A stretch of DNA of 64,000 nucleotides. It comes from an uncultured Planctomycetia bacterium. Its GTDB lineage: Bacteria; Omnitrophota; Gorgyraeia; Duberdicusellales; 4484-171. The stretch covers positions 612,056 to 676,055 of the forward strand of contig CAZVQU010000001.1 of NCBI GenBank assembly GCA_964629655.1, read 5' to 3'. This document shows, piece after piece, positions 10,683 through 52,382 of the stretch. The position numbers were made by a program, and so were the translations under genes. A model generated the notes under the pieces. That model worked only from the letters and a program-made list of their open reading frames with translations, was not told where the DNA came from and did not search any database. Within the stretch, counting starts at the first letter, position 1, and each line of letters starts with the position of its first letter.

Positions 10683-10693
10683 TAGGCCATAGC

Positions 10694-10711
10694 TTGTTAA
10701 ATAGTTAACAA
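10694..10711. promoter_or_regulatory. Inverted repeat TTGTTAA-ATAG-TTAACAA immediately upstream of the ThiI-like gene start
   Basis: 7-bp arms with a 4-nt spacer, ending 5 nt before the ATG at 10716. It could be an operator or an RBS-occluding hairpin. Confidence 0.3.
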
Positions 10712-10715
10712 TATA

Positions 10716-11705: not shown

Positions 11706-11730
11706 GCATACAGTGAAAAAGGAGGATAAA

Positions 11731-12642: not shown

Positions 12643-12671
12643 TAAGTAACCCTGTAATATCAAGGAGGTGA

Positions 12672-15379: not shown

Positions 15380-15486
15380 CTCTTCCTGAATGATCAAATA
15401 CAAGGATTGTAAATATATTTAAATCTGGTAGAATATCGCTTGCGTTAGATAGGTAAAGTTAGATAAATTCAAAGTAAGGGGGAGAT

Positions 15487-16272: not shown

Positions 16273-16284
16273 TCTAAGAATAAA

Positions 16285-17233: not shown

Positions 17234-17515
17234 ATGGCGCATAAAACAACTCATAGTGAAAATTTGATTGCTCTGCGAAGAATTGAGGGCCAGATTAAAG
17301 GTATCCAGAAAATGGTTGAAGAAAAGAAATATTGTATAGATATCGTCAATCAGGTTCATGCTTCAATAAGTGCTCTTCGCCGAGTAGCTGAGAAAATTCT
17401 CTCTAAACATATGGAACATTGCGTAGTAGATGCCATAAAGGGGAAATCAGAGTCGCAAAGAAAAGAAAAGATAGATGAGGTAATGAGTGTAATAAGAAAA
17501 ATACATAAGATATGA
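17234..17515 (+). CDS. csoR: CsoR/RcnR/FrmR-family metal-sensing transcriptional repressor
   Basis: 93 aa, all-helical. Conserved Cys (KYCIDI) and the H-x-x-x-C pair (HMEHC) sit at CsoR Cu(I)-ligand positions. The RBS is GAGGTG. Confidence 0.75.
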   Translation: MAHKTTHSENLIALRRIEGQIKGIQKMVEEKKYCIDIVNQVHASISALRRVAEKILSKHMEHCVVDAIKGKSESQRKEKIDEVMSVIRKIHKI

Positions 17516-18528: not shown

Positions 18529-18529
18529 G

Positions 18530-19213
18530 ATGAGAAAATTTATTTTAAGTTTAATGCTGTGTTTTTTATCAACTTTTGCTTACTCTGATGATGCGTCTGC
18601 AGCAGTTGGCTGTACCTTAAACGACCCGGATCGTGATGTAATCCGTATTTTCCCAGAATCTACCGGTTATCGAACTGATTTTATAAGCATAAAGGAGAAG
18701 GGTGGGGAGATTTTAGCAGAAGAAATAGAAAAGAAGCTCGGCGATAAACTAGATTCTGCTTATGAGTCTTTAGATGTGCCTTATTCTTACTATACCATTC
18801 TTAAAGGCATGGAGGTCATTGGCTACATTCATGGTGTTAACCAGAAAGGAACTTTTGGAGGAATACAGATTATCTTAGCCAGTGATTTAGAGGGTAAGAT
18901 AATAAATCTTTATTATCAGAAGATATCTTCTCCTGAGGCCAGTAAATTTAGAAACAAAAGATTTGTTGACCAGTTCACAGGACTAACACTGGCAGATTTC
19001 TATCGTCATGATGCTTTAGGGGGTAACGAATATTCTTATGACAAAATAGCAGAAATCAAAGATCCAAGCGAAAACAGCAATCAAGATTTTAAAGCCACCT
19101 TAAGAGGCATAAAGAAGAATTTAATCTTACTTGATGAGTTTATATTAAATAGTAAGTATGATCAGGATTATAACAAGATTAATAAAGGAGGTAATAATGA
19201 GAGTGATGATTAG
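18530..19213 (+). CDS. Secreted protein with an FMN-binding-like domain (similar to the NosR/RnfG/NqrC periplasmic domain). The flavinylation motif is not evident.
   Basis: Signal peptide MRKFILSLMLCFLSTFAYS. The core GVNQKGTFGGIQIILASDLEGKIINLYY...FVDQFTG fits an FMN_bind domain. The track start at 18518 precedes the porin stop. Confidence 0.4.
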   Translation: MRKFILSLMLCFLSTFAYSDDASAAVGCTLNDPDRDVIRIFPESTGYRTDFISIKEKGGEILAEEIEKKLGDKLDSAYESLDVPYSYYTILKGMEVIGYIHGVNQKGTFGGIQIILASDLEGKIINLYYQKISSPEASKFRNKRFVDQFTGLTLADFYRHDALGGNEYSYDKIAEIKDPSENSNQDFKATLRGIKKNLILLDEFILNSKYDQDYNKINKGGNNESDD

Positions 19214-33083: not shown

Positions 33084-33482
33084 ATGAACCAGAAGGTAGA
33101 GGTAAAATTCTTAAGCAAAGATAAATTTGAAGTTAGAGCAGTATCTTCAGCAACTACAATCTATGTTGATAAAAAAGAGCCTGATAGTATTCCCTCCGGG
33201 CCAAATCCTTTAGAACTTTTTCTCTCATCGTTGGCTTCCTGCACTGGAGTTTTTGCTAAAAAGTACTTAGAACGCCACAATTTAGAGTTTAAAGAGTTAA
33301 GAGTAGAGGCCCAAGCAGAGTTTACCACGCAGGCTCCGATGAGATTAACTAAGATAAAGGCCAAGGTTCATACTGACGCCGATTTAGGAGATAAGAGAGA
33401 AGTTTTTCTAAGATTCATCGAGGGCTGCCCGATTCACAATACCGTTCTTTACACTAGCAAGATAGATATCGAATTAAGCTAG
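33084..33482 (+). CDS. OsmC/Ohr-family peroxiredoxin-like protein
   Basis: GPNPLELFLSSLASCTG motif with the catalytic Cys. The RBS is AGAGGAGGG. Confidence 0.8.
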   Translation: MNQKVEVKFLSKDKFEVRAVSSATTIYVDKKEPDSIPSGPNPLELFLSSLASCTGVFAKKYLERHNLEFKELRVEAQAEFTTQAPMRLTKIKAKVHTDADLGDKREVFLRFIEGCPIHNTVLYTSKIDIELS

Positions 33483-34331
33483 CAGAGTTGAGCCGTCACA
33501 ATTAGCAGTATTTAAACTATTAAATCCTTCCCGGCAGCTAGAGAATTTTAACTTCTCGCTAAGGGCGATTTCTCTTACCTTATTTATTAAATCTTTCCTT
33601 AAAGTTTGCGGCAGATAAGTATAGCCACCAATTTTTTCTCCTTGCTTAAGATAAAGCTTCTGCCATAATTCTTTATATTCGGGGAAAGCAACAACCATTC
33701 TTTTAAAGTTATCAGGCTTTACCTTATAAGTAGAGGCAATGACTTGTTTTGCTCCTGCTATTTTGATTTTTCTTATTGAGTCTTTAATTTCTTCGGTATT
33801 TAAGGGGTAAATTAAAGGATCAAGCCGAACAGCTACCGGTAGATATGAAGCGAGCTCCCTAACTGCTTTTAATCTTTCTTGAGGGGAGCAAGAGCGAGGT
33901 TCTAATTTTCTTGCTAATTCTTTATCTAGGGTAGTAAGGGAAATACTGGCTACTATTTTTTTAAAACTTTTTAATATATCTAAATCCCTTAAGATCAGAG
34001 AGGACTTTGTGACAATATTTATGCTCAGATCATGTTTTCCCATTATCTTTAAAGCAGCTCGAGTTAAGCCTAGCTCTTCCTCGAGGGGAAGATAAGGGTC
34101 AGAAGAGTTAGCCATGGCGATGAGAGAATCTTTAGGGATTTTATCGATTTCCTTCTCCAGCCTTTTTAAAAAGTCTTTTTTCTCGCGTGGTTGGTAAAAG
34201 TCTCTTATATATGATGAAGCATAGCAGTAGAGGCAATTGTGAGAACAACCAGTATAGGCTGATAAGCTATATTTAGCCGGGCAGGTACATAGATTGCCTT
34301 TCCAAGGGTCAAATCTGGTAATTAAGCTCAT
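33474..34331 (-). CDS. Radical SAM protein of the SPL / DNA-photolyase-like family
   Basis: GCSHNCLYC (CxxxCxxC) near the N-terminus and the family-typical length and composition. Convergent with osmC; the two overlap by 9 nt. Confidence 0.6.
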   Translation of the reverse strand: MSLITRFDPWKGNLCTCPAKYSLSAYTGCSHNCLYCYASSYIRDFYQPREKKDFLKRLEKEIDKIPKDSLIAMANSSDPYLPLEEELGLTRAALKIMGKHDLSINIVTKSSLILRDLDILKSFKKIVASISLTTLDKELARKLEPRSCSPQERLKAVRELASYLPVAVRLDPLIYPLNTEEIKDSIRKIKIAGAKQVIASTYKVKPDNFKRMVVAFPEYKELWQKLYLKQGEKIGGYTYLPQTLRKDLINKVREIALSEKLKFSSCREGFNSLNTANCDGSTLLA

Positions 34332-34426: not shown

Positions 34427-34786
34427 GTGATAGCTAAGATCATTGGAACCATTTGGGTTATCTGGGGTATTTTAATTCTTGTTAAACCGGAAATTTTACA
34501 GAAGAAGTTGCAGACAAAAGGGCTCAAAAAGCTAAAAAAGAACCTATTTTTACTGACATTATTTCTTTCAATCACTTTGATTATAGCCTCTTTTAAGGCC
34601 GAGGGTTTATTGCCCAAGGTATTGCTAGTTTTGGGTATTATAGGTATATTTAAGGCTTTCATTTTTCTTAAATCTAAAGCTTCTGATAAGCTGATAGCCT
34701 TCTCAAGCAACCTTTCTTTAACTGTTTATCGCCTCGCAGGGGCAGTTTATATTGCTATTGGCTTTAGTATAATGAAATTTCTCTAA
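34427..34786 (+). CDS. Small integral membrane protein (three predicted TM helices); GTG start
   Basis: AAGGAGG RBS 7 nt before the GTG at 34427, with hydrophobic helices. The antisense ORF 34402-34710 is rejected. Confidence 0.4.
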   Translation: MIAKIIGTIWVIWGILILVKPEILQKKLQTKGLKKLKKNLFLLTLFLSITLIIASFKAEGLLPKVLLVLGIIGIFKAFIFLKSKASDKLIAFSSNLSLTVYRLAGAVYIAIGFSIMKFL

Positions 34787-34868: not shown

Positions 34869-36485
34869 ATGAGTAGCAAATATTCTTTTAAATCTGTGAT
34901 TTTCGACCTCGACGGCGTGATTACCAAGACTGCCCTTGTTCATGCAGCAGCCTGGAAAGAGGCTTTTGATCAGTATTTACGCTTAAGAGAGTCAAGAGAC
35001 AAAGAGCCTTTCGCTGAGTTTACTCACCAAGATGACTATCTTCCCTATGTTGATGGAAAACCTCGCTACAAAGGGGTAAAGAGCTTTCTAGAGTCAAGAA
35101 ACATCAATATTCCTTATGGTGAGCCAACTGATTCTCCGGATGCCGAGACTATTTGCGGCATAGGGAATAATAAGAATGCAAAGTTTTGTCAGGTCTTAAA
35201 AGCTAAGGGAGTTGAGGTTTATCCTTCAACTATTGAATTAATCAAAGAATTAGAGGCTTCAGGGGTAAAAATAGGAGTAGCTTCTTCTTCAAAAAACTGC
35301 AAAGAGATTTTAGAAGTTGCTGAAATTGAAAATTTCTTCAAAACAAGAGTAGATGGTGTAGTCTCAGTACAACTGGGCCTTAAGGGAAAACCCGAAGGAG
35401 ATATCTTTACAACAGCAGCTTTTAATCTTGGAACTATACCAGCTGAGTCGATAGTTGTTGAAGACGCGTCTTCAGGGGTAGCAGCCGGGCGTAATGGCGG
35501 GTTTGGCTTAGTCATCGGTCTAGCTAGAGAGAAGAATCAGAAAGAATTACTCGAGAATGGAGCCGATTTAGTAGTTACTGACCTATCAGAGATAAACTTA
35601 GAGTTAATCGAGCAGTGGTTTCATAAGAAGCCGAGAGATTTACTCCAAAATTGGGACAAGCAGAGTGAGAGAATAGAGTCTTTAGAGGGCAAAGAGAAAG
35701 AAACCGGAGCAATTATTAACCCTTCTTATCTGGGTAGCGGAAAATCTTACCTCTTTAGCGGAAAAAAAATAGTTTTCTTCCTGGATTATGATGGAACTCT
35801 AACACCGATAGTTTCCCGTCCCGAGCTAGCAGTGATTTCTAGCCAGATGCAGGATATGATAAAGAAATTATCCCAAAAATATACTACTGCGATTGTAAGC
35901 GGGAGAATGAGAGAGGATGTTGAGAAGCTTGTCGGTATTCAAGGATTAATCTATGCCGGAAGCCACGGCTTTGATATCAAGGGTCCACAAGTTACGATGG
36001 TGCAGCCACAGGCTAAAGAAACTATACCGTTAGTTTCTAAGATAATTGAAAGGTTAAAAAAAGAATTATCTAATCTTGAGGGCTTGATAATAGAGGAGAA
36101 GAAATTTAGCGTAGCTGTGCATTATCGTCTGGTCGAGAGAGAAGAAATCCCGGCAATAAAGACTTTAGTTGGCGGGTTGATCCAAGAGAATAAGTCTTTA
36201 CGTTTGATGAAGGGGAAAAAAGTCTTTGAGATCCTTCCAGCTATAGATTGGAATAAAGGTAAGGCTGTAAAGTGGGTAATGAATGCCTTAGGGATTAACT
36301 GGGAAGATTTTTCTGTAATTTATATAGGAGATGACACAACCGACGAGGATGCTTTCAGAGTAGTTGCTACTCGCGGAATGAGTATTTTGGTTTCGGATAA
36401 ACCCAAAGCTTCGGCGGCTGATTTTGTGTTGTCTTCGCCAAAACAAGTAAAGGAATTATTTGAAAGAGTCCTCACAACTACTTAA
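34869..36485 (+). CDS. Fusion protein: beta-phosphoglucomutase (HAD) N-terminal domain plus trehalose-6-phosphate phosphatase (OtsB-like) C-terminal domain
   Basis: N-terminal domain: FDLDGVIT, KIGVASSSKN, VEDASSGVAAG (beta-PGM motifs I-III). C-terminal domain: FFLDYDGTLTPIV and GDDTTDEDAF (OtsB motifs). Confidence 0.8.
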   Translation: MSSKYSFKSVIFDLDGVITKTALVHAAAWKEAFDQYLRLRESRDKEPFAEFTHQDDYLPYVDGKPRYKGVKSFLESRNINIPYGEPTDSPDAETICGIGNNKNAKFCQVLKAKGVEVYPSTIELIKELEASGVKIGVASSSKNCKEILEVAEIENFFKTRVDGVVSVQLGLKGKPEGDIFTTAAFNLGTIPAESIVVEDASSGVAAGRNGGFGLVIGLAREKNQKELLENGADLVVTDLSEINLELIEQWFHKKPRDLLQNWDKQSERIESLEGKEKETGAIINPSYLGSGKSYLFSGKKIVFFLDYDGTLTPIVSRPELAVISSQMQDMIKKLSQKYTTAIVSGRMREDVEKLVGIQGLIYAGSHGFDIKGPQVTMVQPQAKETIPLVSKIIERLKKELSNLEGLIIEEKKFSVAVHYRLVEREEIPAIKTLVGGLIQENKSLRLMKGKKVFEILPAIDWNKGKAVKWVMNALGINWEDFSVIYIGDDTTDEDAFRVVATRGMSILVSDKPKASAADFVLSSPKQVKELFERVLTTT

Positions 36486-38913
36486 AAGTACTAATATCGA
36501 AACTTCACCTCCTTGGGCAATAGTCTATGAGAGGTTTGAGCCGGCCGAGGAAGCTTTAAGGGAAGCGCTCTGCACATTAGGTAATGGTTACTTTGCAACC
36601 CGAGGCGCTGTCTCTGAATCAGTAGCTTCCAAGATCCACTATCCGGGAACCTATATTGCTGGGCTCTACAATCGCCTGGCAACTCACATAGCCGGCAGGA
36701 CAGTTGTTAACGAAGATATGGTGAATTGTCCTAATTGGATCTTTTTAACCTTTAAGATCGGCGATAGTGAGTGGTTTTATCCTTCAATGACCAGAATACT
36801 CTCCTTTAAGCAGAAACTTGATATGCGAAAAGGCATATTAAGTAGAAAAATCCGTTTTCAGAATCGAAAAGGGCATAAGACTTTTGTTGAGATGAATAGG
36901 ATTGTGCATATGGATAATCCTCATTGCGGGGCTTTTGAATATATTATTATTCCTGAAAATTACAATGAGTGGATTACTGTGAGGACAATGCTCGATGGCA
37001 CTGTACTTAATACCGGTGTAGAGAGGTATCGTCAGCTTAACTCTAAGCATTGGAAAGCTTCCTCTTTGGGTAGCTTTGAGAGAAACGGAATATTTCTTTC
37101 AATGAAAACTAGCCGCTCAAAGATTGAAGTTGCCGAGGCTGCCAAGACTCGGGTTTTTGCTTCTGAGAGAGAGATAAAGCCTGGTATCCGGCATCTTATG
37201 AAAGGTAAAGAGAGAATTGGTCAAGAGTTTAAATTTTTTGCCCGAGCAAGATCATCCTATCGAATTGAGAAAATAGTTTCAATTTATACCTCTAAGGATG
37301 AAGATGCCAGCGATCCGGTTTCAAGCTCAATTGCCTCTCTAAGGAAGCCACAGCGTTTTAAAAAACTACTTAAGACTCATCAGAAGAGGTGGGAGGAACT
37401 TTGGAAGAAGTTTGACATAAAAATCGAAGGCCATACCTTTTCACAGCGGATACTACGTTTTCATATCTTTCATCTCCTTCAAACTGCTTCTTTGCACAAT
37501 GTGAAGATTGACGCCGGCCTTCCGGCTCGAGGTTTGCATGGTGAAGCTTATCGTGGGCACATATTCTGGGATGAAATTTTTGCCATGCATTTGTATGATT
37601 TACACCTCCCTGATATTACCAAGGCCCTACTTCTTTATCGCTATAGGCGTCTTCCTAAAGCTAGAGAATATGCCAAGGAAGAAGGCTATAAGGGTGCGAT
37701 GTTTCCTTGGCAGAGTGGTTCTTCAGGCAAGGAAGAGACCCAAACAGTTCACTTAAACCCTCTTTCCGGTGAGTGGGGTCCTGACTATAGCCATCGCCAG
37801 AGGCATATTTCTTTTGCTATTTGCTACAATACTTGGCAGCATTGGAAGAGAACCGGTGATTTCGGCTTTTTAGTCCGTTATGGAGCTGAGATGATTCTTT
37901 CGATTGCCCGTTTTTGGGGAAGCTTGGTAAGGTACGACTCAAGTGAGGGAAGGTATTACACCAAGGGCGTTATGGGTCCGGATGAGTTTCATGAAAAGCT
38001 TCCCGGTTCATCGAGGCCAGGGTTAAAAGATAATGCTTATACTAATTTTATGGTTACTTGGACCTTGCTTAAAGCCCAAGAAGTTATTCGTCTTTTGCCC
38101 GAAGGCGGTAAGAGGCGGATTATGAAGAAGCTAAAGTTGGAGCAGAAAGAGCTTGCACGATGGGATAGGATTGCACATAAGATGAAGATAATAATAAACG
38201 ATAAAGGTATTATAAGCCAATTTGACGGTTATTTTGATTTAAAAGAATTAGATTGGCAGGGTTACAAGAGTGAATATGAGAATATCCAGAGGCTGGATAG
38301 GATTCTAAAGGCTGAAGGTGAATCACCGGATGCTTACAAGGTTTCAAAGCAGGCTGATCTACTAATGATATTTTACCTTCTGCCTCTTTTTGAGATAGAA
38401 GCTATTTTTAAAAGATTAGGTTATAATCTTGACAAAGATACTCTAAGAAAGAATTATAATTATTATGTCAGAAGAACTTCTCATGGCTCAACGATGAGCA
38501 AGGTTACTCATTGTTTTATTGCTCAAGCTTTAGGTAAGCCGAAAAGAGCCTGGGAGGGATTTCTGGATGTTCTTGAGTCAGACATTTATGATACCCAAGG
38601 TGGGACCACGCCTGAGGGCATTCATGTCGGAGTTATGGGTGGTTCTATTGATGTAGTCATAAGGGGTTTTGCCGGGGTGCGTATTGCTGAGGATAGAATT
38701 ATTGTTGAACCCAGGCTGCCCTTGAAGTGGCGTAGCATGAAATTCGGGTTTGTCTATAAAGGAATATGGATCTCGTTAATAATTACTAAACGCCAGGTAT
38801 CAGTCTTGGTCCAAGGCCAAATTACTATCCCGATAGAAATCAATGGTAAGGCCTATTATCCTCTCCTAGATAAGGTTTTAAAGGTTCCTTTCCGGAGAAA
38901 ACGCGTCAAATAA
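36460..38913 (+). CDS. Glycoside hydrolase family 65 disaccharide phosphorylase (trehalose / trehalose-6-P / kojibiose phosphorylase type); TTG start
   Basis: LGNGYFATRG N-terminal motif, YRGHIFWDE, the catalytic-acid region GVMGPDEFHE, and a C-terminal beta-sandwich. Confidence 0.8.
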   Translation: MKESSQLLKSTNIETSPPWAIVYERFEPAEEALREALCTLGNGYFATRGAVSESVASKIHYPGTYIAGLYNRLATHIAGRTVVNEDMVNCPNWIFLTFKIGDSEWFYPSMTRILSFKQKLDMRKGILSRKIRFQNRKGHKTFVEMNRIVHMDNPHCGAFEYIIIPENYNEWITVRTMLDGTVLNTGVERYRQLNSKHWKASSLGSFERNGIFLSMKTSRSKIEVAEAAKTRVFASEREIKPGIRHLMKGKERIGQEFKFFARARSSYRIEKIVSIYTSKDEDASDPVSSSIASLRKPQRFKKLLKTHQKRWEELWKKFDIKIEGHTFSQRILRFHIFHLLQTASLHNVKIDAGLPARGLHGEAYRGHIFWDEIFAMHLYDLHLPDITKALLLYRYRRLPKAREYAKEEGYKGAMFPWQSGSSGKEETQTVHLNPLSGEWGPDYSHRQRHISFAICYNTWQHWKRTGDFGFLVRYGAEMILSIARFWGSLVRYDSSEGRYYTKGVMGPDEFHEKLPGSSRPGLKDNAYTNFMVTWTLLKAQEVIRLLPEGGKRRIMKKLKLEQKELARWDRIAHKMKIIINDKGIISQFDGYFDLKELDWQGYKSEYENIQRLDRILKAEGESPDAYKVSKQADLLMIFYLLPLFEIEAIFKRLGYNLDKDTLRKNYNYYVRRTSHGSTMSKVTHCFIAQALGKPKRAWEGFLDVLESDIYDTQGGTTPEGIHVGVMGGSIDVVIRGFAGVRIAEDRIIVEPRLPLKWRSMKFGFVYKGIWISLIITKRQVSVLVQGQITIPIEINGKAYYPLLDKVLKVPFRRKRVK

Positions 38914-39015
38914 TCCTTTTTTAACTATTTTTTTCGCTTTTGGAAGATTTTTCTTTATGCTATAATAAGGCTTCAAAATTCTATATAGGTATATTATATA
39001 AAAGATAGGTTAAGA

Positions 39016-39666
39016 GTGGCTAAAGTGTCTAAAAAAATAGGTTGGGAGATAGCAAAGACAATTTCCTTTCCGATACTTCTTTTTCTGCTATTTTTAAGCG
39101 CTTATGCATTTTACAAACTAAGAGTAGCGTCTTATGTATCGGTCGAACTACAGGAAGATTTAAAAAAGTATCTTCTGACCATAGTGATTATTATAATAGG
39201 TTTTATTATCAAAAGGGTTATTGCCGGAGTCTCAACCTGGTATAAGGAGAATATTGCTTCTAAGACAGCTAGTAGTCTGGATGATCAGTTAATTCCTATC
39301 GCCAGACGACTATTAAAAGTTGCGGTTTGGATTGTCGTTCTTTTAATTATCCTGCCTCTTTACGGAATCGATATAAGTGCCTTAATTACTGCCTTAGGAG
39401 TAAGTTCTTTAGCGATTGCCTTGGCTGCCAAAGATACCATTGCCAATATTATTTCCGGGTTTATGATTATGATTGACAGGCCTTTTAGGATAGGTGATAG
39501 AGTTAAGATTCCTTCAGGAGAAGTGGTCGATGTTTTAGAAATCGGAGTAAGGCGTTCAAAGTTTTTATCCCAAGATAAAGCGATAGTAATTGTACCTAAT
39601 TTAGAGTTAAGCAAAAGCAAAATCATCAACTATACTTACGGAGAAGAGAGGAATGCCAAAGACTAA
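39016..39666 (+). CDS. Small-conductance mechanosensitive channel (MscS family); GTG start
   Basis: N-terminal TM helices, then the conserved MscS beta-domain (IISGFMIMIDRPFRIGDRVKI...GEVVDV). Confidence 0.7.
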   Translation: MAKVSKKIGWEIAKTISFPILLFLLFLSAYAFYKLRVASYVSVELQEDLKKYLLTIVIIIIGFIIKRVIAGVSTWYKENIASKTASSLDDQLIPIARRLLKVAVWIVVLLIILPLYGIDISALITALGVSSLAIALAAKDTIANIISGFMIMIDRPFRIGDRVKIPSGEVVDVLEIGVRRSKFLSQDKAIVIVPNLELSKSKIINYTYGEERNAKD

Positions 39667-41986
39667 AGATATCTATTCTAACTATATCAATGATGAGCTC
39701 TGGTTGATAAAGGAGACCGGGTGGGCAAAGGAGTCTCAGAGTGTGAAAGAGTCCCAGTTCTCTTTGGGTAATGGCTATTTAGGCACAAGAGGTATTTATG
39801 AGGAGATACCTTATGATTGCGCACCGGGAACTTATATCGCTGGGATTTATGACAAGATGGCTTCTCAGGTCTCTGAAATGGTCAATTTTCCCAATCCAAT
39901 TAACTTTAAGTTTGCTGTTGGGGGTGAGAAGCTTGGCTTAATCGCTATGGATACAATTGACCATAAGAGAATTCTTAATATGAAAAAGGCTGTGTTAGCA
40001 AGGCATACTATATATAAAGATAGCAAAAATAGATGCTATGATTACCAGTCAGCAAGATTCATTTCCCGACACGATAAAAATATAGGAGTTATGCAAATAG
40101 CATTAACCCCTTTAGATTCTGCCTGCGTATTGGATGTAAATACTGGTATCGATACTTCTGTTTCTAATGTTGGAGTTTTAACCGAGGGCCGGAAAAAGCA
40201 TTTTCGTATCAAGGAGCTAGGCCAGTATAAGGGGGCTGGTTTTCTTATTCAGGAAACCTTTGAGAAAAAATACACGGTAGTATATTGGGCCGGGTTTTAT
40301 TATCATATCAATAATAAAAAAGTATTGCCTAAGGATAATATATTTAGTCTTAAACTTAAGAAGAACCAGACAGTGGTGTTCACTAAGGTATTTTGTATAA
40401 AACATTACCCTTCCAAAGGCAGTCACGCAGCTCAAAAAAGAGATGCTTTTAATATATTCCACAAGTCTTTTAAGAGTGATTTTTCAACCCTTCTTAAAAA
40501 CCATATTGATGCCTGGGATAAACTATGGAAGAGGGCCGATGTTGTTATTGAGGGGACAGCTAATATTCAGCAGAATATGCGTTTCAATATATATCATATG
40601 CTCACCTGCCTTCATTGCGATAATGGGTTTTCAAGTATTGGTGCAAGAACCTTAAGTGGCGAAGGATATCGGGGACACATATTTTGGGATGCAGAGATTT
40701 TTCTCCTGCCGTTTTATCTCTTTACTTTTCCTAAAGCAGCAAAGAATATGCTTCTCTATCGCTACCAAAGGTTAGAAGAATCAAGAAAAATCGCTAAAGG
40801 GAATGGCTATAAAGGTGTGCAGTTTGCCTGGGAGTCAGCCGGTACCGGGGAAGAAGAGACTCCAACCTGGGCTATAGATATTGACCGGACAATTATCAAG
40901 ATACATACCCATAAGATGGAGCACCATTTAACTGCTGATATTGCTTATGCTATTAACAAGTATTATATAGCTACTGGTGATGATAAATTTATGCAAGATG
41001 CTGGATATGAAATGCTTATAGAGACAGCAAGATTCTGGGCTTCACGGGTTAAGTATAATAAGAAGAAGGATAAGTATGAGATCAAACAGGTTATTGGCCC
41101 GGATGAGTTTCACGTTGCCGTAGATAATAATGCTTTTACCAATATGATGGCTAAGTGGAATTTATTATTGGTAGTTAAGATGCTGGAGAGGCTAAAGAAA
41201 AAAGCTAAAGTTTACAATAAGATAAGTAAAAAATTAGATTTAAAAGATAAGGAAATAAAGTCCTGGAAGAGAATCGCTTCCAAGATAATTACTCGGATGA
41301 ATAAGAAGAATATCATTGAACAGTCTGATGGTTTTTTTAAATTAAAAAAAGTCGCTCTTAATAGAACCGATGAGAACGGTATTCCGCTTATACCTTCAAA
41401 GATAAGAGCAAAGGATTTAGGCAAGACTCAGATAGTAAAGCAGGCCGATGTTTTAATGCTTATTTATCTACTTGGTGATATATTCAGTGCAAAGACAAAA
41501 CTTGCTAACTATGATTTTTATATCTCTCGTACAGTACATAAGTCTTCTCTAAGTGCTCCGATGCATGCTTTCATTGCTTCTGAGGTTGGAGATTTACAGA
41601 GGGCCTATAGTCTTTTTAATGTTGCTATGCGCACAGATATAAGTAATCTTTACGGAAATACTGCCGAGGGAGTCCATGCTGCATCTTTGGGAGGTACCTG
41701 GCAGGCTCTGGTTTTTGGTTTTGGTGGGGTTGTTATTAGGAATAGTGAATTATTTATAAATCCTCGCATGCCCCGTTCTTGGCGTAAGCTTAAGTTTTCT
41801 TTAAGTTGGCGAGACAGCTTAATCAAATTGCAAGTAACTAACGATATCATAAAGATAAAAGTATCTTGCTCTAAGCACAAAAAGACAAAAATAGGCATAT
41901 TTGATAAGTTGAGGATTATCAAAACCAACAAAATTCATACTTTCAAAAGGCATATTCATGGAGCGGTGAAGGAGGCGTATTACTAA
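39653..41986 (+). CDS. Second GH65-family disaccharide phosphorylase
   Basis: LGNGYLGTRG, YRGHIFWDAE and QVIGPDEFH motifs. About 30% identical by eye to the upstream GH65. Confidence 0.8.
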   Translation: MPKTKDIYSNYINDELWLIKETGWAKESQSVKESQFSLGNGYLGTRGIYEEIPYDCAPGTYIAGIYDKMASQVSEMVNFPNPINFKFAVGGEKLGLIAMDTIDHKRILNMKKAVLARHTIYKDSKNRCYDYQSARFISRHDKNIGVMQIALTPLDSACVLDVNTGIDTSVSNVGVLTEGRKKHFRIKELGQYKGAGFLIQETFEKKYTVVYWAGFYYHINNKKVLPKDNIFSLKLKKNQTVVFTKVFCIKHYPSKGSHAAQKRDAFNIFHKSFKSDFSTLLKNHIDAWDKLWKRADVVIEGTANIQQNMRFNIYHMLTCLHCDNGFSSIGARTLSGEGYRGHIFWDAEIFLLPFYLFTFPKAAKNMLLYRYQRLEESRKIAKGNGYKGVQFAWESAGTGEEETPTWAIDIDRTIIKIHTHKMEHHLTADIAYAINKYYIATGDDKFMQDAGYEMLIETARFWASRVKYNKKKDKYEIKQVIGPDEFHVAVDNNAFTNMMAKWNLLLVVKMLERLKKKAKVYNKISKKLDLKDKEIKSWKRIASKIITRMNKKNIIEQSDGFFKLKKVALNRTDENGIPLIPSKIRAKDLGKTQIVKQADVLMLIYLLGDIFSAKTKLANYDFYISRTVHKSSLSAPMHAFIASEVGDLQRAYSLFNVAMRTDISNLYGNTAEGVHAASLGGTWQALVFGFGGVVIRNSELFINPRMPRSWRKLKFSLSWRDSLIKLQVTNDIIKIKVSCSKHKKTKIGIFDKLRIIKTNKIHTFKRHIHGAVKEAYY

Positions 41987-43182
41987 TGGGGACAAATAGT
42001 CTCAGTATCGCTCATTTTCACTGGGGATTCCCTCCGATAATTGGTGGAGTAGAGACTCATCTTACTATACTCTTACCCCAACTAGTGAAGTTAGGCCATA
42101 AGGTCAGCTTACTTACTGGTTCAATAGAAGGCTCTAAAGCGAGGTCTAAATATGAGGGGGCCCAGATTTACCGGACTCCGATTATGGATTTAAACTGGCT
42201 CTACAAACGGGGCTTAAGTGGTTTGGAAGAAGAGATCAAGAAAACTTTTGCTTCTTTTCTAGAGGATAGCCGTCCTGACATTGTTCATGTTCACAATATG
42301 CATTATTTTAGTCAAATTCATGTCAAGACCTTGGAGGGCCTGAGCAAGAAAAGAGGAATTCCCTTTGTTCTTACTGCCCATAATGTTTGGGATGACATCC
42401 TTTTTCTGGAGCTGACCCATAGGATAGATTGGTCCCAGATTATTGCTGTAAGCCACTTTATAAAAAAGGAAATTATCGGTATCGGCATAGATGATAAGAA
42501 GATTACTGTTGTTCACCATGGGGTAGATCAGGATAGGTTTACTCCCGGAGTAGATACAAAAGCAATATTAGCTAAGTATCCGCAACTTAAGGGTAAGAAA
42601 GTAATATTCCATCCGGCCCGGATTGGTTTAGCTAAAGGTTGTGATTTTAGCATTAAAGCTATGAACATAGTGAGACAGAAGAATCCTGATGCTTTGTTGG
42701 TTCTGGCCGGATCGAAAAACATTATTGATTGGGGAGGCAGCCAACAGAAAGACATTGCTTATTTGGTAGATTTGATAAAACACTTTGATATGGATGATAG
42801 TGTTTTGATAGATATGTATACCCTAGATGAGGTAAAGGAACTATATGAGGTAAGCGATATTTGTCTCTACCCTTCTTCTGCGCCTGAACCTTTCGGGTTA
42901 ACTATGCTTGAGGCTATGTCTATGGCTAAGCCGATGATCGTTACCAATATGGGGGGAATGCCCGAAATTATTAAGCATGGGATTAACGGCTTTGTTGTCC
43001 CGGTTAGGGATTTTGAGGCTATGGCAGGAAAGGTATGCCAATTGTTAGAGGATACAAAATTAAAAGAAAGGTTTGGCTATACCGGAAGACAAATGGTTGA
43101 GTCACAGTATACTAAAGAAAAAGTGACCGAGGAGACCCTGGGGGTTTATAAAAAAGTGATGAGTAGCAAAATAAGGAGTTAG
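41986..43182 (+). CDS. GT4-family (GT-B) glycosyltransferase
   Basis: N-terminal GGVETH, and a C-terminal EPFGLTMLEAMSMAKPMIVTNMGG...E motif (the GT4 E-x7-E region). The start overlaps the upstream stop. Confidence 0.75.
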   Translation: MGTNSLSIAHFHWGFPPIIGGVETHLTILLPQLVKLGHKVSLLTGSIEGSKARSKYEGAQIYRTPIMDLNWLYKRGLSGLEEEIKKTFASFLEDSRPDIVHVHNMHYFSQIHVKTLEGLSKKRGIPFVLTAHNVWDDILFLELTHRIDWSQIIAVSHFIKKEIIGIGIDDKKITVVHHGVDQDRFTPGVDTKAILAKYPQLKGKKVIFHPARIGLAKGCDFSIKAMNIVRQKNPDALLVLAGSKNIIDWGGSQQKDIAYLVDLIKHFDMDDSVLIDMYTLDEVKELYEVSDICLYPSSAPEPFGLTMLEAMSMAKPMIVTNMGGMPEIIKHGINGFVVPVRDFEAMAGKVCQLLEDTKLKERFGYTGRQMVESQYTKEKVTEETLGVYKKVMSSKIRS

Positions 43183-43183
43183 A

Positions 43184-45067
43184 GTGACTAAAGATTATTC
43201 CAATTTTTTAAAGGGGAAATTAAGTAAGGAGAGTTTTGAGAAGCTTTTGGCTTTAGAAAATTCTAAGGTTATTGACTTTGTTGGAGAGTATGTGGAGCTT
43301 TGTAACCCGGATTCAGTTTTTATCCGCACAGATACTCTTGCCGATTCAACTTACCTAAGAGAAAAGGCTAAGGCTTTGAGTGAAGAGAAGAGTTTAAAAA
43401 TCCAAGGCCACACAATTCATTTTGATAGCCCGCTTGATCAGGCCCGAGATAAAAAGAATACCAAGTATCTTGTCTCTAAAGACCTAAAGGCTCAAAGCTA
43501 TTTAAATAGTCTTGATTATGACCAGGGGACGGCTGAGGTAAGAGGGATATTAAAGGATATCATGAAGGGCAAAGAGATGTTTGTGTGTTTCTTCTGTTTA
43601 GGCCCGGTTGATTCTGACTTTTCGATTTTAGCAGTGCAGATTACTGACTCCTCTTATGTAGTCCACTCCGAGGATATCCTTTATCGACCAGGCTATGAGC
43701 AGTTGAAGAAAAACAAAGGCCAGGGAGAATTTTTTTCGTTTGTGCATTCGGCCGGAGTTTTAGAGAATAATGTAAGTAAAAATGTAGATAAACGAAGAGT
43801 GTATATTGACTTGGAGAATAATTTAGTCTATAGCGTAAATACTCAATACGCCGGTAATACCGTAGGTTTGAAAAAACTTTCCCTAAGGCTTGCCATAAAA
43901 AAGGCTTACCAGGAAGGCTGGCTTGCTGAGCATATGTTCGTAATGAATGTTGCAAGAGAAGACGGAAAAAAGGCTTATTTTTGCGGAGCTTATCCCAGCA
44001 TGTGTGGTAAGACTTCTACAGCTATGCTTCAGGGCGAATCAATTATCGGAGATGATATAGCTTATTTGCGAGCCAAAGACGGCAAAGCTTATGCTGTAAA
44101 CGTAGAGAGGGGTATTTTTGGTATTATCAAAGATGTAAATCCTAAAGATGATCCAGTGCTGTTTGAATCTTTGACTAAGCAAGGAGAGGTTATCTTTTCT
44201 AATATTTTAATCGATGAAGACAAGGAAGTCTTCTGGATTGGCAAGAGCAAGGAAGTCCCTCCCAGAGGGATCAATTATGCTGGAGCCTGGAGACCGGGGC
44301 AAACTAACGCCGAAGGCGGGGAAATTACGCCATCGCATAAGAATGCTCGTTACACTATAAGATTAAAAGATTTAAAGAATGTAGACGAGAATTTAGAAAA
44401 ACCCCAAGGGGTTGAGGTCAAAGGGCTAGTTTACGGTGGAAGAGATTCTGACACCTCTGTTCCCGTAGAACAAGCTTTATCTTGGCAGCAGGGGATTATT
44501 ACTAAAGCAGCAAGCCTAGAGTCAGAGACAACAGCTGCTACTTTAGGCAAGGAAGGAGTAAGAGTCTTTAACCCTATGGCTAATATGGATTTTTTATCCA
44601 TTCCTCTGGGAAAATATATAGAGGCAAATTTAGGATTTGCCGAAAAACTAACCGAGGAGCCTCTGATATTTTCAGCCAACTACTTCTTAAGAAATAAGAA
44701 TGGTGAGTTTTTAAATGGAATTCAAGATAAACGGGTTTGGCTTAAGTGGATGAGATTGCGATCCGAAAGCTCGGTAAAGGCGTTAATAAGCCCGACAGGA
44801 TTAATACCCGAATATCGAGATTTAAAGAAACTGTTCAAAGAGATTCTAGATAAAGATTATAGTGAAGCTGAATATGTTGAGCAGTTTACCATAAGAATAC
44901 CAGAGAATCTGGCAAAGATAGAGAGAATTAAAAGTATCTATAAAAAATTAGAGGGAATCCCTTCTGGGCTTTTTACTGAATTAGATGCTCAAAGTGAGCG
45001 CTTAAAAGAAGCTCAAAAGGGAAATGGAGATTATATTAATCCTACAAATTTATCTTGTGAGGTGTAG
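43184..45067 (+). CDS. pckG: Phosphoenolpyruvate carboxykinase (GTP-dependent); GTG start
   Basis: Kinase-1a motif [17 protein letters not shown], and the size and overall pattern of GTP-PEPCK. Confidence 0.75.
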
Positions 45068-51233: not shown

Positions 51234-52382
51234 TTAAATAAGAACTACTCTATTTTTTCCTCTTTTCTTGGCCTTGTATAAGGCTTGGTCGGCTTTTTCA
51301 ATCAAGATTTTTTTATTCGGCGAGTCTTCGGGGTAGGAAGCAATTCCGATACTAATAGTAAATTTGCTTCTCAGGATTCTTTTATTTTCTACCGATTTTC
51401 TTATTCTTTCACCGAGTAAGGCCGCTTCTTCTTTATTATTGGCCGGTAAGATAAGTGCGAATTCCTCTCCGCCATAACGGCAGATAATATCGATTTTGCG
51501 GCAATTCTCCCTAAAGACTTCTGCTATTCTTTTTAAAGCTTCATCACCTTGGGTATGGCCGCGGGTATCATTAAATTTTTTGAAATCATCAATATCAATC
51601 ATCATTAATGATAAGGCAAGAGAGGTTGTGTTCGATTTGGCTATTTCTTCATCTAGGCGATATTGAAAGTATCCGTAGTTCCAAAGAGAGGTCAAAGGAT
51701 CAGTGTGAGATCGGGTTAAGGTACTTTCAAAACTCTGGGAGTTTTCTAAAGCCCCTTGAGCCTGTTCCATAAACATAGTAAAGATTTTTATGTCGTCACC
51801 GCTTATAGGGTTTTTAGTGATATAGTTATCTACTACTACCACTCCGGTAGGTTTGCCTTTTATCCAGAGAGAAAAGATAAGGAATTCTCCAAGATCCAGA
51901 CTTTTTACTAAAGAATCATTCTTTAGCTTTCTTTCATTACCTTTAACCCAGGCAACATCTTTTTTATAGAGGGTATCAAAAATTAATCCTCCTTTTTTGT
52001 TTAAAGGAAAGGACAAGGACTTAACCAGTTCCATAAATTTTGGTTTTTCTTTGTTTTCTTTTATATGGTTATAATTGGCGATTAAGTCATAGAGGTTCTT
52101 TTTTTCTTCTTCAATGTTATGCCAGATTTGGGTTGCTTCCTGGCTGTCCATCGGGCCAATACCCATAAAACCGTTTATCTTTTTACCTTTTTCATCGACA
52201 AAGAAAATAACTGCTCGGTTGAATCTTAAGCCCTCATTGGCAGTTAAGCCGGTTAAGATAATATAAGTTATTTCATCAAGTCGCAGGGTTGTCCGCATTG
52301 CCTTGGTCAGTTCATAGAAGACATATAGCTGGGAGCGGGCTTTTTCTAACTCTTCTTTGAGTTTGCTTATTTCTTTATTCAT
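51234..52382 (-). CDS. GAF-domain diguanylate cyclase (GGDEF)
   Basis: N-terminal GAF-like region, and a C-terminal GGDEF domain with RYGGEEF and an RxxD-like I-site region. Confidence 0.8.
   Translation of the reverse strand: MNKEISKLKEELEKARSQLYVFYELTKAMRTTLRLDEITYIILTGLTANEGLRFNRAVIFFVDEKGKKINGFMGIGPMDSQEATQIWHNIEEEKKNLYDLIANYNHIKENKEKPKFMELVKSLSFPLNKKGGLIFDTLYKKDVAWVKGNERKLKNDSLVKSLDLGEFLIFSLWIKGKPTGVVVVDNYITKNPISGDDIKIFTMFMEQAQGALENSQSFESTLTRSHTDPLTSLWNYGYFQYRLDEEIAKSNTTSLALSLMMIDIDDFKKFNDTRGHTQGDEALKRIAEVFRENCRKIDIICRYGGEEFALILPANNKEEAALLGERIRKSVENKRILRSKFTISIGIASYPEDSPNKKILIEKADQALYKAKKRGKNRVVLI

Follow-up and report, generated by a model that had tools for sequence, protein, structure and literature searches.

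A conserved Omnitrophota gene cluster for the probable synthesis of the stress protectant trehalose from glucose-6-phosphate without OtsA

Sequence analysis of a 64,000-nucleotide stretch of Omnitrophota DNA (hereafter the window) points to a conserved, trehalose-centred sugar cluster made up of two modules, the first of which would make trehalose from glucose-6-phosphate (G6P) alone, a reading that we hold with a probability of about 0.55. In the proposed route, a beta-phosphoglucomutase (beta-PGM) domain would convert G6P to beta-glucose-1-phosphate (beta-G1P), and a GH65 phosphorylase (GH65 #1), working in the synthetic direction, would then combine beta-G1P with a second G6P to give trehalose-6-phosphate (T6P). 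A phosphatase fused to the beta-PGM would dephosphorylate T6P irreversibly and so pull the two preceding, reversible steps forward. The net reaction would be 2 G6P + H2O -> trehalose + 2 Pi, without UDP- or ADP-glucose, the phosphorylase standing in for the OtsA of sister lineages. The second module would handle a second glucoside, of the alpha-1,2 type, with beta-G1P and beta-PGM as a currency common to both modules, and its MscS channel would release solutes upon osmotic downshift.

Layout of the locus

The cluster in the window consists of five genes, all on the plus strand and joined by overlaps or short gaps as verified by an ORF check, and the same gene string is present on independent metagenome contigs. 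The features of the locus are as follows.

34427..34786, + strand: hydrophobic ORF of 119 aa without Pfam or NCBIfam match; conserved upstream neighbour of the cluster
34869-36485, + strand: beta-PGM/T6P-phosphatase fusion, 538 aa
34869..35648, + strand: N-terminal beta-PGM-type HAD domain of the fusion (G6P <-> beta-G1P), predicted from sequence
35649..36485, + strand: C-terminal T6P phosphatase domain of the fusion (TIGR00685, 183 bits; PF02358, 1.5e-52)
36460..38913, + strand: GH65 #1, putative T6P-phosphorylase type (beta-G1P + G6P <-> T6P + Pi), 817 aa, TTG start
39016..39666, + strand: short MscS-like mechanosensitive channel, 216 aa, TM2/3 plus beta-domain only
39653..41986, + strand: GH65 #2, putative kojibiose-phosphorylase (KP) type, 777 aa
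41986..43182, + strand: GT4 retaining glycosyltransferase, 398 aa (PF13439 plus PF00534)
43184..45067, + strand: PEPCK (GTP) (NF003253, 631 bits against a cut-off of 504)

The start of GH65 #1 overlaps the stop of the fusion by 26 nt, GH65 #2 overlaps the MscS gene by 14 nt and GT4 overlaps GH65 #2 by 1 nt, the sole real gap in the five-gene run being the 102 nt between 38913 and 39016. According to Pfam and NCBIfam models, the fusion has a beta-PGM-like HAD domain (residues 8-213) and a Trehalose_PPase domain (residues 304-523), and two cluster genes each encode the N-terminal, catalytic and C-terminal GH65 domains (PF03636, PF03632 and PF03633). The co-directional five-gene cluster of the preliminary description of this DNA is thereby borne out, both in its coordinates and in its domain content.

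PEPCK begins 1 nt after GT4, and the co-directional run thus continues past 43182. The gene closes the cluster in relatives irrespective of whether the last sugar gene is GT4, OtsB or TreT; we regard it as a syntenic flank, possibly cotranscribed with the cluster, and claim no pathway role for it. At the 5' end, the 119-aa ORF adjoins the sugar cluster in relatives whatever its first gene (L004, 78%; L088, 85%; L094, 56%; L096, 47%). The slot delimited by the small ORF and PEPCK occupies the same chromosomal position in relatives, the flanks are housekeeping genes, no tRNA was found at the locus, and the GC content of the cluster (0.37-0.42 per 2-kb bin against 0.36-0.43 across the window) and its skew are like those of the rest of the window. 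The locus is therefore not a genomic island, as the preliminary description had called it, in the horizontal-transfer sense; it is composed of two conserved modules, module 1 (34869-38913) with the fusion and the T6P-type GH65, and module 2 (39016-43182) with the short MscS, the KP-type GH65 and GT4, to which a beta-PGM is sometimes added in relatives.

Enzyme families and catalytic residues

Both halves of the fusion retain all their catalytic residues, and their likely substrates are proposed from these signatures. The best solved relative of the beta-PGM domain is 8h5s (labelled beta-phosphoglucomutase; 1.8e-55), which has the same long cap insertion. Aligned with the Lactococcus lactis beta-PGM (1lvh), D13/D15, T21, H25 and W29 of the domain correspond to D8/D10, T16, H20 and W24; G63, R66 and S139 to G46, R49 and S114; and S141-K142-N143, K174 and E198-D199 to S116-K117-N118, K145 and E169-D170. 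The Asp pair and the distal-phosphate site are present, all residues align, and all are invariant in 12 homologues except T21, K142 and N143, with K142 nearly so. Scored as an isolated domain, it lies below the NCBIfam cut-offs for beta-PGM (TIGR02009 subfamily, 147.2 vs 153.35; TIGR01990 equivalog, 105.4 vs 189.4), and this shortfall coincides with the long cap insertion common to 8h5s. The phosphatase domain passes the TIGR00685 T6P-phosphatase equivalog cut-off (183 bits vs 68), its best solved relative being the trehalose-phosphate phosphatase 5gvx (9e-56). Its HAD-IIB motifs DxDx(T/V), SG(R), K and GDDxxD are all present, and the catalytic residues (D306xD308, S344-G345-R346, K450/K451, D488-D489..D492), including all the catalytic Asp residues, are invariant.

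The specificity motif of GH65 #1, read at positions 64, 392, 394, 402, 416 and 585 of the kojibiose phosphorylase CsKP, is DQGQDE (D86, Q418, G420, Q428, D442, E619), the T6P-phosphorylase motif of GH65 subgroup 22 (De Beul et al. 2021), and is kept as DQ[GAS]QDE in nearly all orthologues. DQGQDE correctly predicted the T6P phosphorylase of Caldithrix abyssi (PMC8537180), and the motif-matched enzymes of Caldithrix, Kuenenia and L. lactis catalyse beta-G1P + G6P <-> T6P + Pi. The best solved relative of GH65 #1 is 9lb6 (4.7e-146, 491 bits); KP scores 402 bits and maltose phosphorylase (MP) 201. GH65 phosphorylases combine a general acid Glu with a phosphate site in which Lys and His are joined by two adjacent Ser/Thr residues; in GH65 hydrolases the phosphate-site residues are replaced and a general-base Glu is added (PMC8626586). 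GH65 #1 has the general acid at E509 and the phosphate site at K630, S677-T678 and H722, with E509, K630 and H722 identical in 72/72 T6P-type orthologues and Ser or Thr at both hydroxyl positions. Judged by these features GH65 #1 is of the T6P-phosphorylase type, in agreement with the preliminary description.

The best solved relative of GH65 #2 is CsKP (3wiq; 5.7e-177, 593 bits), against 345 bits for GGP, 280 for MP and 264 for 9lb6. Its motif, EEAPHR, fits the KP pattern EEAPxx, with EEAP shared by seven of the eight orthologues inspected and DEAP in L019. The W-E pair of the +1 subsite is likewise kept (FAWES, aligned to FPWES of CsKP), as are the catalytic Glu and the phosphate-site K, S-S and H in all eight KP-type sequences. 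By its motif and closest structure, then, GH65 #2 is of the kojibiose-phosphorylase type, one of the possibilities raised earlier for this gene. A maltose-phosphorylase identity was rejected for both GH65 proteins, the motif KV[MF]NES being absent from both and the MP structure 1h54 reaching only 201 and 280 bits; with the phosphatase Asp residues kept as well, neither of the findings that the preliminary description had named as speaking against its proposal (GH65 enzymes of the maltose type, an inactive phosphatase) was obtained.

The MscS-like protein (PF21088 plus PF00924) has the pore-lining TM3 and the beta-domain, and its best solved relatives are YnaI and MscS (1e-16 to 1e-11), with matches ending at about residue 180 of the 286-aa MscS. 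Canonical MscS ends in an alpha/beta cytoplasmic cage domain that is missing here, the protein stopping at residue 216, just past the beta-domain. Truncation was considered and rejected, as the ORF is intact in 24 orthologues, at 210-233 aa; structures have been solved for MscS-like channels of 171-174 aa. The short MscS lies upstream of the GH65-GT4 pair in 24/46 evaluable loci and is absent at the "Candidatus Susulua stagnicola" locus. GT4 has an invariant EX7E motif (E301..E309) and BshA 5d00 as its best solved relative (1.5e-28), and reaches no specific NCBIfam equivalog (BshA, 118 vs a cut-off of 273.7).

An orthologue of GT4 directly follows GH65 #2 in 71/73 evaluable loci, and this invariant pair, together with the short MscS, seems to mark an uncharacterised alpha-1,2-glucoside system. 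OtsA is directly downstream of GT4 in 19/53 related loci, and genes for OtsA, OtsB, TreT and an SNF-family transporter occur in related clusters; no sugar transporter gene is adjacent to the cluster in the window. Since GT4 enzymes use NDP-sugars, the label "nucleotide-sugar-independent" that the preliminary description gave to the whole locus does not hold. Its suggestion of osmo-adaptation fares better in part: the conserved short MscS and the related clusters with OtsA, OtsB, TreT or SNF transporter genes are consistent with a link to osmotic stress. The argument from an upstream OsmC gene fails, as a radical-SAM gene on the opposite strand and a small membrane ORF lie between that gene (33084-33482) and the cluster, and an OsmC-like gene is missing from the syntenic "Ca. 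Susulua stagnicola" locus.

Conservation of module 1 and direction of flux

The fusion is encoded in at least 573 genome stretches, and a T6P-type GH65 is directly downstream of it in 71 of the 73 evaluable genome loci, which span many phyla. In five loci from five lineages, a single HAD-T6Pase-GH65 polypeptide of 1332-1460 aa is found. When one such tri-domain protein was compared with the databases, all of its 120 best homologues had beta-PGM-type HAD, trehalose-phosphatase and GH65 Pfam domains, with lengths of about 1150-1390 aa; among tri-domain homologues, lengths of 1310-1340 aa are common. Cultured Nitrosococcus species encode such proteins, as do metagenome-assembled genomes classed as Sulfurimonas and Desulfohalobiaceae.

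The small ORF and PEPCK enclose MscS-bPGM-KP-GT4-OtsA-OtsB in L096 and L100 and fusion-TrePP-MscS-KP-GT4 in the window, L088-L090 and L094. This exchange of OtsA for the phosphorylase at the same position in close relatives speaks for trehalose formation from G6P without OtsA. No OtsA, TreT or standalone OtsB was found in the 64-kb window, and across the genome loci OtsA lies within 8 kb in 9/80 and is absent from most. Among the best 120 matches, no OtsA orthologue of at least 53% identity falls on a contig with the length of the window's own (762,369 bp) or of the Susulua, L006 or L010 contigs; by this weak contig-length heuristic, OtsA may also be absent elsewhere in the genome. Gene adjacency, tri-domain fusions and the OtsA exchange thus strengthen the route from G6P through beta-G1P and T6P to trehalose that the preliminary description had outlined, the direction of flux being what we infer. 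In vitro, T6P phosphorylases form T6P from beta-G1P and G6P, also with beta-PGM in the same pot (PMC11442529), and the equilibrium of the reaction is reported to favour T6P (PMC13121652).

The same enzymes could run the other way, which we consider unlikely. T6P would come from an OtsA encoded elsewhere or from imported trehalose, GH65 #1 would phosphorolyse it, the beta-PGM would return beta-G1P to G6P and the fused phosphatase would be the cell's OtsB, so that the pair would buffer or remove T6P. In several Omnitrophota relatives (L014, L027, L038, L109, L111, L118, L128, L130) the fusion directly follows OtsA, so that its phosphatase could there simply act as OtsB alongside that OtsA, with the phosphorylase perhaps accessory; the order OtsA-fusion-DUF5752-TreT in L126 and L131, without an adjacent phosphorylase, implies that the fusion does not need the phosphorylase. 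The beta-PGM step is uphill from G6P, its equilibrium favouring G6P. An Rv3400-type beta-PGM works catabolically in Mycobacterium tuberculosis, and the T6P phosphorylase of L. lactis, the only one physiologically studied and hence the sole in vivo precedent, is catabolic. Reviews list T6P phosphorylase as a degradative route only (PMC12125463). Against a catabolic pair, neither a phosphotransferase system (PTS) nor a trehalose kinase turned up in the window, and without these T6P would come only from a synthase, making its phosphorolysis a futile loop. Moreover, the tri-domain fusions join the phosphatase to the phosphorylase, an odd arrangement if the two served opposing fates of T6P, and both the scarcity of OtsA near the pair and its exchange for the phosphorylase at one locus argue the same way.

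It is improbable that the two phosphorylases are instead coupled, with GH65 #2 phosphorolysing an alpha-1,2-glucoside (possibly made by GT4) to beta-G1P from which GH65 #1 would form T6P, one glucoside pool being converted into trehalose and the beta-PGM merely balancing the beta-G1P pool. The two modules adjoin each other in the window as in many Omnitrophota relatives, the standalone beta-PGM seen ahead of GH65 #2 in other clusters is mostly missing where the fusion is present (exceptions, L008 and L025), and in vitro cascades of a second GH65 phosphorylase with a T6P phosphorylase work well; however, outside Omnitrophota the fusion-phosphorylase pair occurs without a KP-type GH65 nearby. 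Decidedly improbable is an NDP-sugar-dependent scheme in which GT4 would be a T6P synthase, or an activator of one, and the fusion would dephosphorylate the product. GT4 has its EX7E motif intact, a T6P synthase of GT4 type is known from Sulfolobus acidocaldarius (PMC7688234), and the msc (197 aa)-gt (GT4, 387 aa)-tpsp order of Thermoproteus tenax (PMC3634074) resembles the MscS (216 aa)...GT4 (398 aa)-OtsA order of the 19/53 loci above. Yet GT4 has the KP-type GH65, and neither OtsA nor the fusion, as its invariant partner (71/73 loci), the solved structure closest to it is BshA rather than TreT or PimA, and it coexists with canonical OtsA in relatives, so that it does not replace OtsA. Finally, chance neighbourhood without functional link in a compact, strand-biased genome, with which the nearly uniform plus-strand orientation and short gaps of the window genes and promoter and terminator scans yielding nothing above shuffled expectation would agree, is effectively refuted by the conservation data, i.e., adjacency in 71/73 and 71/73 loci across many phyla and contexts, and the gene fusions.

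Staying with synthesis from G6P, we suggest tentatively, at somewhat less than even odds, that the split pair and the fused form constitute a self-contained, G6P-only trehalose synthase, a further natural pathway present in thousands of bacteria. Under the G6P-only reading, the ratio of G6P squared to phosphate would determine the flux; the carriers would be mostly uncultured, anaerobic or salt-adapted, and would be missed by standard annotation.

Trehalose synthesis is normally inferred from OtsA/OtsB, TreYZ, TreS or TreT. Susulua and Saelkia both carry the fusion-phosphorylase pair, and a published reconstruction scored them for glycogen synthesis and not for trehalose synthesis (PMC8542988); if the pair makes trehalose, genome-based reconstructions such as this one under-call the trait. 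The route would save a nucleotide-sugar activation step, relevant to energy-limited anaerobes such as Omnitrophota, and would assign a function to the long unexplained tri-domain proteins of the M. tuberculosis OtsB1 type.

Relation to known systems

The trePP-pgmB system of L. lactis has the same two activities, the same GH65 specificity motif and beta-G1P as intermediate. There, T6P comes from PTS uptake, flux is catabolic and no T6P phosphatase takes part, whereas the window shows no sign of a PTS and joins the beta-PGM to a T6P phosphatase in one protein, with flux proposed to run towards synthesis. With OtsA/OtsB (TPS/TPP) the cluster would share the T6P intermediate and the last step, and relatives carry OtsA or OtsB within the cluster; in the window, by contrast, T6P would be formed from beta-G1P by an inverting GH65 and not by a GT20 synthase using UDP- or ADP-glucose.

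M. tuberculosis OtsB1 (Rv2006, 1327 aa) presumably shares all three domains and their order (HAD, T6P phosphatase, GH65), the window counterpart being split into two overlapping genes. As a point against the synthetic reading, OtsB1 is dispensable, and its T6P-phosphatase activity is reported to be undetectable (PMC11046441). In vitro T6P cascades, in which maltose phosphorylase is combined with T6P phosphorylase with or without beta-PGM (Taguchi 2020, PMC13121652), use identical, coenzyme-free T6P-forming chemistry. They are engineered and described as new-to-nature, and the window would hold a natural, genetically linked counterpart, with a phosphatase added, to the cascades being engineered for T6P production.

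T. tenax msc-gt-tpsp is a precedent for the osmotic context and resembles the locus in that genes for a GT4 and for a short MscS-like channel (~200 aa) are linked to trehalose synthesis genes; trehalose is proposed there to be made under stress and released via the channel (PMC3634074). T. tenax has no GH65 enzymes and no beta-PGM, and its GT activates TPSP; the two GT4s are likened by gene order and length. As to the kojibiose phosphorylase systems (CsKP; Escherichia coli YcjT-YcjU), GH65 #2 has the KP motif and the W-E pair of the +1 subsite, and the standalone beta-PGM of relatives adjoins the KP-type GH65 as YcjU adjoins YcjT. Unlike in those systems, GH65 #2 is invariably accompanied by a GT4, and often by an MscS, beside trehalose genes.

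Gene cluster and genomic surroundings

The five genes are co-directional and joined by short or overlapping junctions, as the preliminary description had claimed:

34869-36485, +, fusion of a beta-PGM-type HAD domain and a trehalose-6-phosphate (T6P) phosphatase domain, 538 aa
36460-38913, +, first GH65 protein (GH65 #1), 817 aa, TTG start, 26-nt overlap with the upstream stop
39016-39666, +, MscS-like channel, 216 aa
39653-41986, +, second GH65 protein (GH65 #2), 777 aa, 14-nt overlap
41986-43182, +, GT4 glycosyltransferase, 398 aa, 1-nt overlap

Pfam and NCBIfam recognized a beta-PGM-like HAD/trehalose-phosphatase fusion, two three-domain GH65 proteins, an MscS-like channel, and a GT4 protein. 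The TTG is the only in-frame start ahead of the conserved N terminus of GH65 #1, and the sole real gap in the cluster (102 nt) lies ahead of the channel gene. The identical gene string occurs on independent metagenome contigs, and the nearest named relative of this Omnitrophota member is "Candidatus Susulua stagnicola," with a fusion protein 84% identical.

The cluster had also been called an island, a term that does not hold in the sense of horizontal transfer: its GC content and skew are those of the remaining window, tRNA and Rfam scans of the whole window returned no features, and the neighbors are housekeeping genes (FeoB, a DtxR-like regulator, PEPCK, PurC, EtfAB, and SMC), with sulfur, tetrapyrrole, thiamine, and biotin genes farther upstream. 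The PEPCK-GTP gene begins 1 nt after GT4. An OsmC-like gene, previously cited as a sign of osmo-adaptation, is not adjacent, since a radical-SAM gene on the opposite strand and a small membrane ORF intervene. The OsmC-like gene is missing from the syntenic Susulua locus, and the NCBIfam matches of its OsmC family here include a peroxiredoxin model, for which reasons we rejected it as evidence. Promoter and terminator scanning of 32.4 to 46.2 kb gave 37 and 11 sites versus 32.7 and 11.1 in shuffled sequence and was thus uninformative on operon boundaries; extended -10-like sequences seen by eye in the gaps before 34869 and 39016 were given no weight.

Several other features of the region were recorded. 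A 119-aa hydrophobic ORF without a family match (34427-34786, +) is kept directly 5' of the sugar cluster in relatives, whatever the first gene there, with 31 to 85% identity in L004, L008, L088-L089, L093-L094, L096, L100, L108, and L111 (L numbers denote related loci from genome and metagenome scans, L004 being that of Susulua). The radical-SAM protein (33474-34331, -) is PA0069/DUF1848-like, falls under all equivalog cutoffs, and keeps its position beside the cluster in L004, L008, L093, L094, and L100. Its gene and that at 51234-52382 are the only two long minus-strand genes in the window, where 51 of the 55 ORFs of at least 140 aa lie on the plus strand and GC skew is positive in each 2-kb bin, an extreme bias that fits a long leading-strand stretch. 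The sulfur/tetrapyrrole run (3693-13889) encodes PAPS reductase, glutamyl-tRNA reductase, a tetrapyrrole methylase, ALAD, a class III aminotransferase, a small sulfite-reductase-like protein, a PLP enzyme, and an HcyBio homocysteine-synthesis enzyme (PF01837). The ORFs at 16285-17103, 841-1971, and 17512-19213 comprise one protein with DUF6775 and DUF7001, a probable metallopeptidase, and three ORFs of 231 to 376 aa without a Pfam match.

Assignment of the GH65 and fusion proteins

Both GH65 proteins were assigned to subgroups by combining a published specificity motif with comparative bit scores against PDB-derived sequences. According to De Beul et al., six correlated positions (64, 392, 394, 402, 416, and 585 in the numbering of CsKP, structure 3wiq) discriminate GH65 specificities, reading DQGQDE in T6P phosphorylases, EEAPxx in kojibiose phosphorylases, KV[MF]NES in maltose phosphorylases, and TRIGPP in trehalose phosphorylases; the T6P phosphorylase of Caldithrix abyssi was predicted from DQGQDE and then confirmed (PMC8537180). 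Aligned to 3wiq, GH65 #1 has D86, Q418, G420, Q428, D442, and E619, i.e., DQGQDE, and GH65 #2 has E, E, A, P, H, and R. The two proteins are only 31% identical to each other.

Bit scores of the two GH65 proteins against reference sequences
Reference: GH65 #1; GH65 #2
9lb6: 491; 264
CsKP: 402; 593
Glucosylglycerol phosphorylase: 269; 345
Maltose phosphorylase: 201; 280

The general acid Glu and the phosphate-site Lys, His, and Ser-Ser/Thr are present in both proteins. Since GH65-family hydrolases replace these phosphate-site residues (PMC8626586), both are classed as phosphorylases. The GH65 chain 9lb6, whose motif is identical to that of GH65 #1, was named "trehalose-6-phosphate hydrolase" by its depositors; a hydrolase function for GH65 #1 was ruled out, its phosphate site being intact and free of hydrolase-type replacements. 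Judged by these sequence features, GH65 #1 is a T6P-type and GH65 #2 a kojibiose-type phosphorylase, and neither is a maltose phosphorylase. The enzyme-level assignments made earlier, including the two GH65 phosphorylases, are supported.

The closest solved relative of the N-terminal domain of the fusion is 8h5s (1.8e-55), a 260-aa beta-phosphoglucomutase with which it has a long cap insertion in common and which, from its numbering, we take to be Mycobacterium tuberculosis Rv3400. Without Rv3400, beta-G1P in M. tuberculosis rises 30-fold in vivo. Relative to Lactococcus lactis beta-PGM, the domain keeps both catalytic Asp residues (nucleophile and acid-base), the hinge Thr, H20, and W24, as well as the distal-phosphate site (R49/S116-K117-N118, K145, and E169-D170). 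Across 12 homologues most of these columns are invariant and K142 is nearly so; T21 and N143 belong to neither class. The domain scores under the NCBIfam beta-PGM cutoffs (147.2 versus 153.35 and 105.4 versus 189.4) and is therefore named beta-PGM-type, a label short of established membership. In the C-terminal domain the T6P-phosphatase equivalog cutoff is exceeded, with 183 bits versus 68. Neither of the weaknesses foreseen in the preliminary description, GH65 proteins of the maltose-phosphorylase kind and a dead phosphatase, was found, the motifs being of other types and all HAD-IIB motifs being in place.

Module conservation in related genomes

In a scan that took a single genome for each species, at least 573 stretches encode the full-length fusion. 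The best 80 of these come from Omnitrophota, Atribacterota, Auribacterota, Elusimicrobia, Gemmatimonadota, Binatia, Desulfobacterales, Desulfohalobiaceae, Planctomycetota, Chlamydiae, Synergistales, one cyanobacterium, and alpha-, beta-, and gamma-proteobacteria, and include the cultured hosts Modicisalibacter xianhensis and Lutibaculum baratangense. The gene immediately 3' of the fusion is a GH65 #1 orthologue in 71 of 73 loci with sufficient downstream sequence, nearly always with DQ[GAS]QDE. In five loci the pair (module 1) forms a single ORF of 1332 to 1460 aa with the Pfam order HAD, trehalose phosphatase, GH65; a further candidate, L029, was dropped because of a stop at the junction. With one of these tri-domain proteins as query, the best 120 database matches (approximately 1150 to 1390 aa) all combine a beta-PGM-type HAD with trehalose-phosphatase and GH65 domains by Pfam, and include Nitrosococcus halophilus, N. 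oceani, N. wardiae, Sulfurimonas, and Desulfohalobiaceae. M. tuberculosis OtsB1 presumably has the same HAD/T6P-phosphatase/GH65 architecture, which we regard as a lead, not a result. OtsB1 (Rv2006) is a 1327-aa protein of unknown function (PMC11046441). The fusion can also occur without an adjacent phosphorylase: in L126 (9171-14087) and L131 (7926-12945) the order is OtsA, fusion, and a DUF5752-TreT pair with no GH65 phosphorylase between, and in L024 and L066 the phosphorylase is likewise missing downstream of the fusion.

Module 2 (channel, GH65 #2, and GT4) was examined in 80 loci retrieved by a metagenome scan with GT4 alignment (60 to 89% identity). A kojibiose-type GH65 gene lies directly 5' of GT4 in 71 of 73 evaluable loci; farther upstream, the 46 loci that were long enough contain a standalone beta-PGM in 21 cases, above the TIGR02009 cutoff, and a short MscS in 24. 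In close relatives this beta-PGM sits between the short MscS and the GH65 gene (L008:13500-14135 and L025:3719-4348). The standalone gene is missing in the window, where the MscS stop overlaps the GH65 #2 start by 14 nt, leaving the fused domain as the only beta-PGM of the cluster. The channel ORF measures 210 to 233 aa in 24 orthologues, so the short form is genuine and a truncated pseudogene was ruled out; solved MscS-like channels of 171 to 174 aa are known. In GT4 the EX7E motif is invariant; its best solved relative is BshA (1.5e-28), which glycosylates a small acid, and no equivalog cutoff is reached. Loci devoid of trehalose genes have unrelated housekeeping genes 3' of GT4, which gives no clue to its product. 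Module 2 is most simply read as a pair of enzymes, one making an alpha-1,2-glucoside and the other phosphorolyzing it.

Of 53 related loci, 19 have a canonical OtsA (GT20) gene immediately 3' of GT4. Either OtsB or the fusion plus GH65 #1 comes after it, then often a DUF5752-TreT pair, and in one case an SNF-family transporter. The clusters fall into three types, all within the same family.

Gene orders in related loci (KP, kojibiose-type GH65; TrePP, T6P-type GH65)
Type a: MscS-bPGM-KP-GT4-OtsA-OtsB(-DUF5752-TreT); L096, L100, L116, L135, L138, L139, L156, L158
Type b: MscS-KP-GT4-OtsA-fusion-TrePP(-DUF5752-TreT); L038, L109, L111, L118, L128, L130
Type c: fusion-TrePP-(MscS)-KP-GT4-PEPCK; window, L004, L088-L094

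The pair of DUF5752 and a TreT-type trehalose synthase (PF21269) stands at the 3' end of trehalose clusters (e.g., L139:11790-13672) in L025, L030, L109, L116, L126, L128, L130, L131, L135, L138, L139, and L158, and this recurrence suggests that DUF5752 is probably trehalose related; L027 has a partial DUF5752 match only. In L139 (671-kb contig) a YGGT-family membrane protein (9184-9486) lies between GT4 and OtsA, and an SNF-family sodium symporter (14957-16522) ends the trehalose cluster.

Types a and c share one chromosomal slot, from the conserved 119-aa ORF to PEPCK, and differ in having OtsA versus a T6P-type phosphorylase and separate versus fused beta-PGM and phosphatase. From gene order, it looks as though an analogous enzyme that forms T6P has replaced OtsA, and of all the evidence this speaks most strongly for flux in the synthetic direction. 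Type b, however, points the other way in that the fused phosphatase could there be no more than a partner to OtsA.

The 64-kb window encodes no OtsA, TreT, DUF5752, or standalone OtsB. When an Omnitrophota OtsA was used as query, none of the 120 best matches, which reached down to 53% identity, lay on a contig with the length recorded as longest for the fusion protein (762,369 bp), with that of Susulua (261,687 bp), or with those of the two chromosome-level Omnitrophota records (1,275,267 and 1,516,639 bp) that carry the pair with no adjacent OtsA. This is a weak indication, since it would miss an OtsA of divergent sequence or one encoded on a different contig. In Williams et al., glycogen synthesis alone is given for Susulua stagnicola and Saelkia tenebricola, and trehalose synthesis for other Ace Lake Omnitrophota (PMC8542988); the pair is present in both species (L004 and L022). 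An overview paper on Omnitrophota makes no mention of trehalose.

A candidate route to trehalose

In the proposed pathway, the beta-PGM domain would convert G6P to beta-G1P, GH65 #1 would form T6P and Pi from beta-G1P and G6P, and the phosphatase domain would irreversibly release trehalose and Pi, the sum being 2 G6P + H2O -> trehalose + 2 Pi. The beta-PGM equilibrium lies far towards G6P, making the first step unfavorable. The T6P-phosphorylase equilibrium has been reported to favor T6P (PMC13121652), and synthesis by this enzyme has been used preparatively, also in one pot with beta-PGM (PMC11442529). By our estimate the sum should be exergonic, because two phosphoester bonds are traded for one glycosidic bond. 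With both reversible steps near equilibrium, T6P would be proportional to G6P squared over phosphate, and module 1 would then, we infer, act as a valve through which surplus hexose phosphate spills over into trehalose.

The putative OtsA-bypassing route of the preliminary description is strengthened by the conservation of the pair, the fusions, and the locus-level swap, and complicated by relatives that have OtsA beside the fusion. As read from the genes, a pathway from G6P to trehalose is plausible. Live alternatives concern GT4, which by analogy may itself be a T6P synthase, as with the Sulfolobus GT4 that has this activity (PMC7688234), or a synthase activator, as in the msc-gt-tpsp locus of Thermoproteus tenax, where trehalose synthesis is linked to a GT4 and an approximately 200-aa MscS-like channel and the glycosyltransferase activates the synthase (PMC3634074). 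A catabolic role for module 1 is harder to justify, as the window shows neither a PTS nor a trehalose kinase to supply T6P and the phosphatase step would be irreversible.

In a 2025 review of T6P metabolism the phosphorylase figures solely in T6P degradation (PMC12125463), and in the open literature searched the titles, abstract openings, and review passages covered assign no natural biosynthetic role to T6P phosphorylase. The question raised by module 1 bears also on the widespread tri-domain OtsB1-type proteins. Compared with known systems, trehalose utilization in L. lactis has enzymes in common with module 1, but that route is catabolic and lacks the phosphatase; OtsAB has the last step in common; and the T6P cascades published as new-to-nature match its steps in their chemistry. 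What is proposed here is a set of known enzyme families in a natural pathway topology not previously described.
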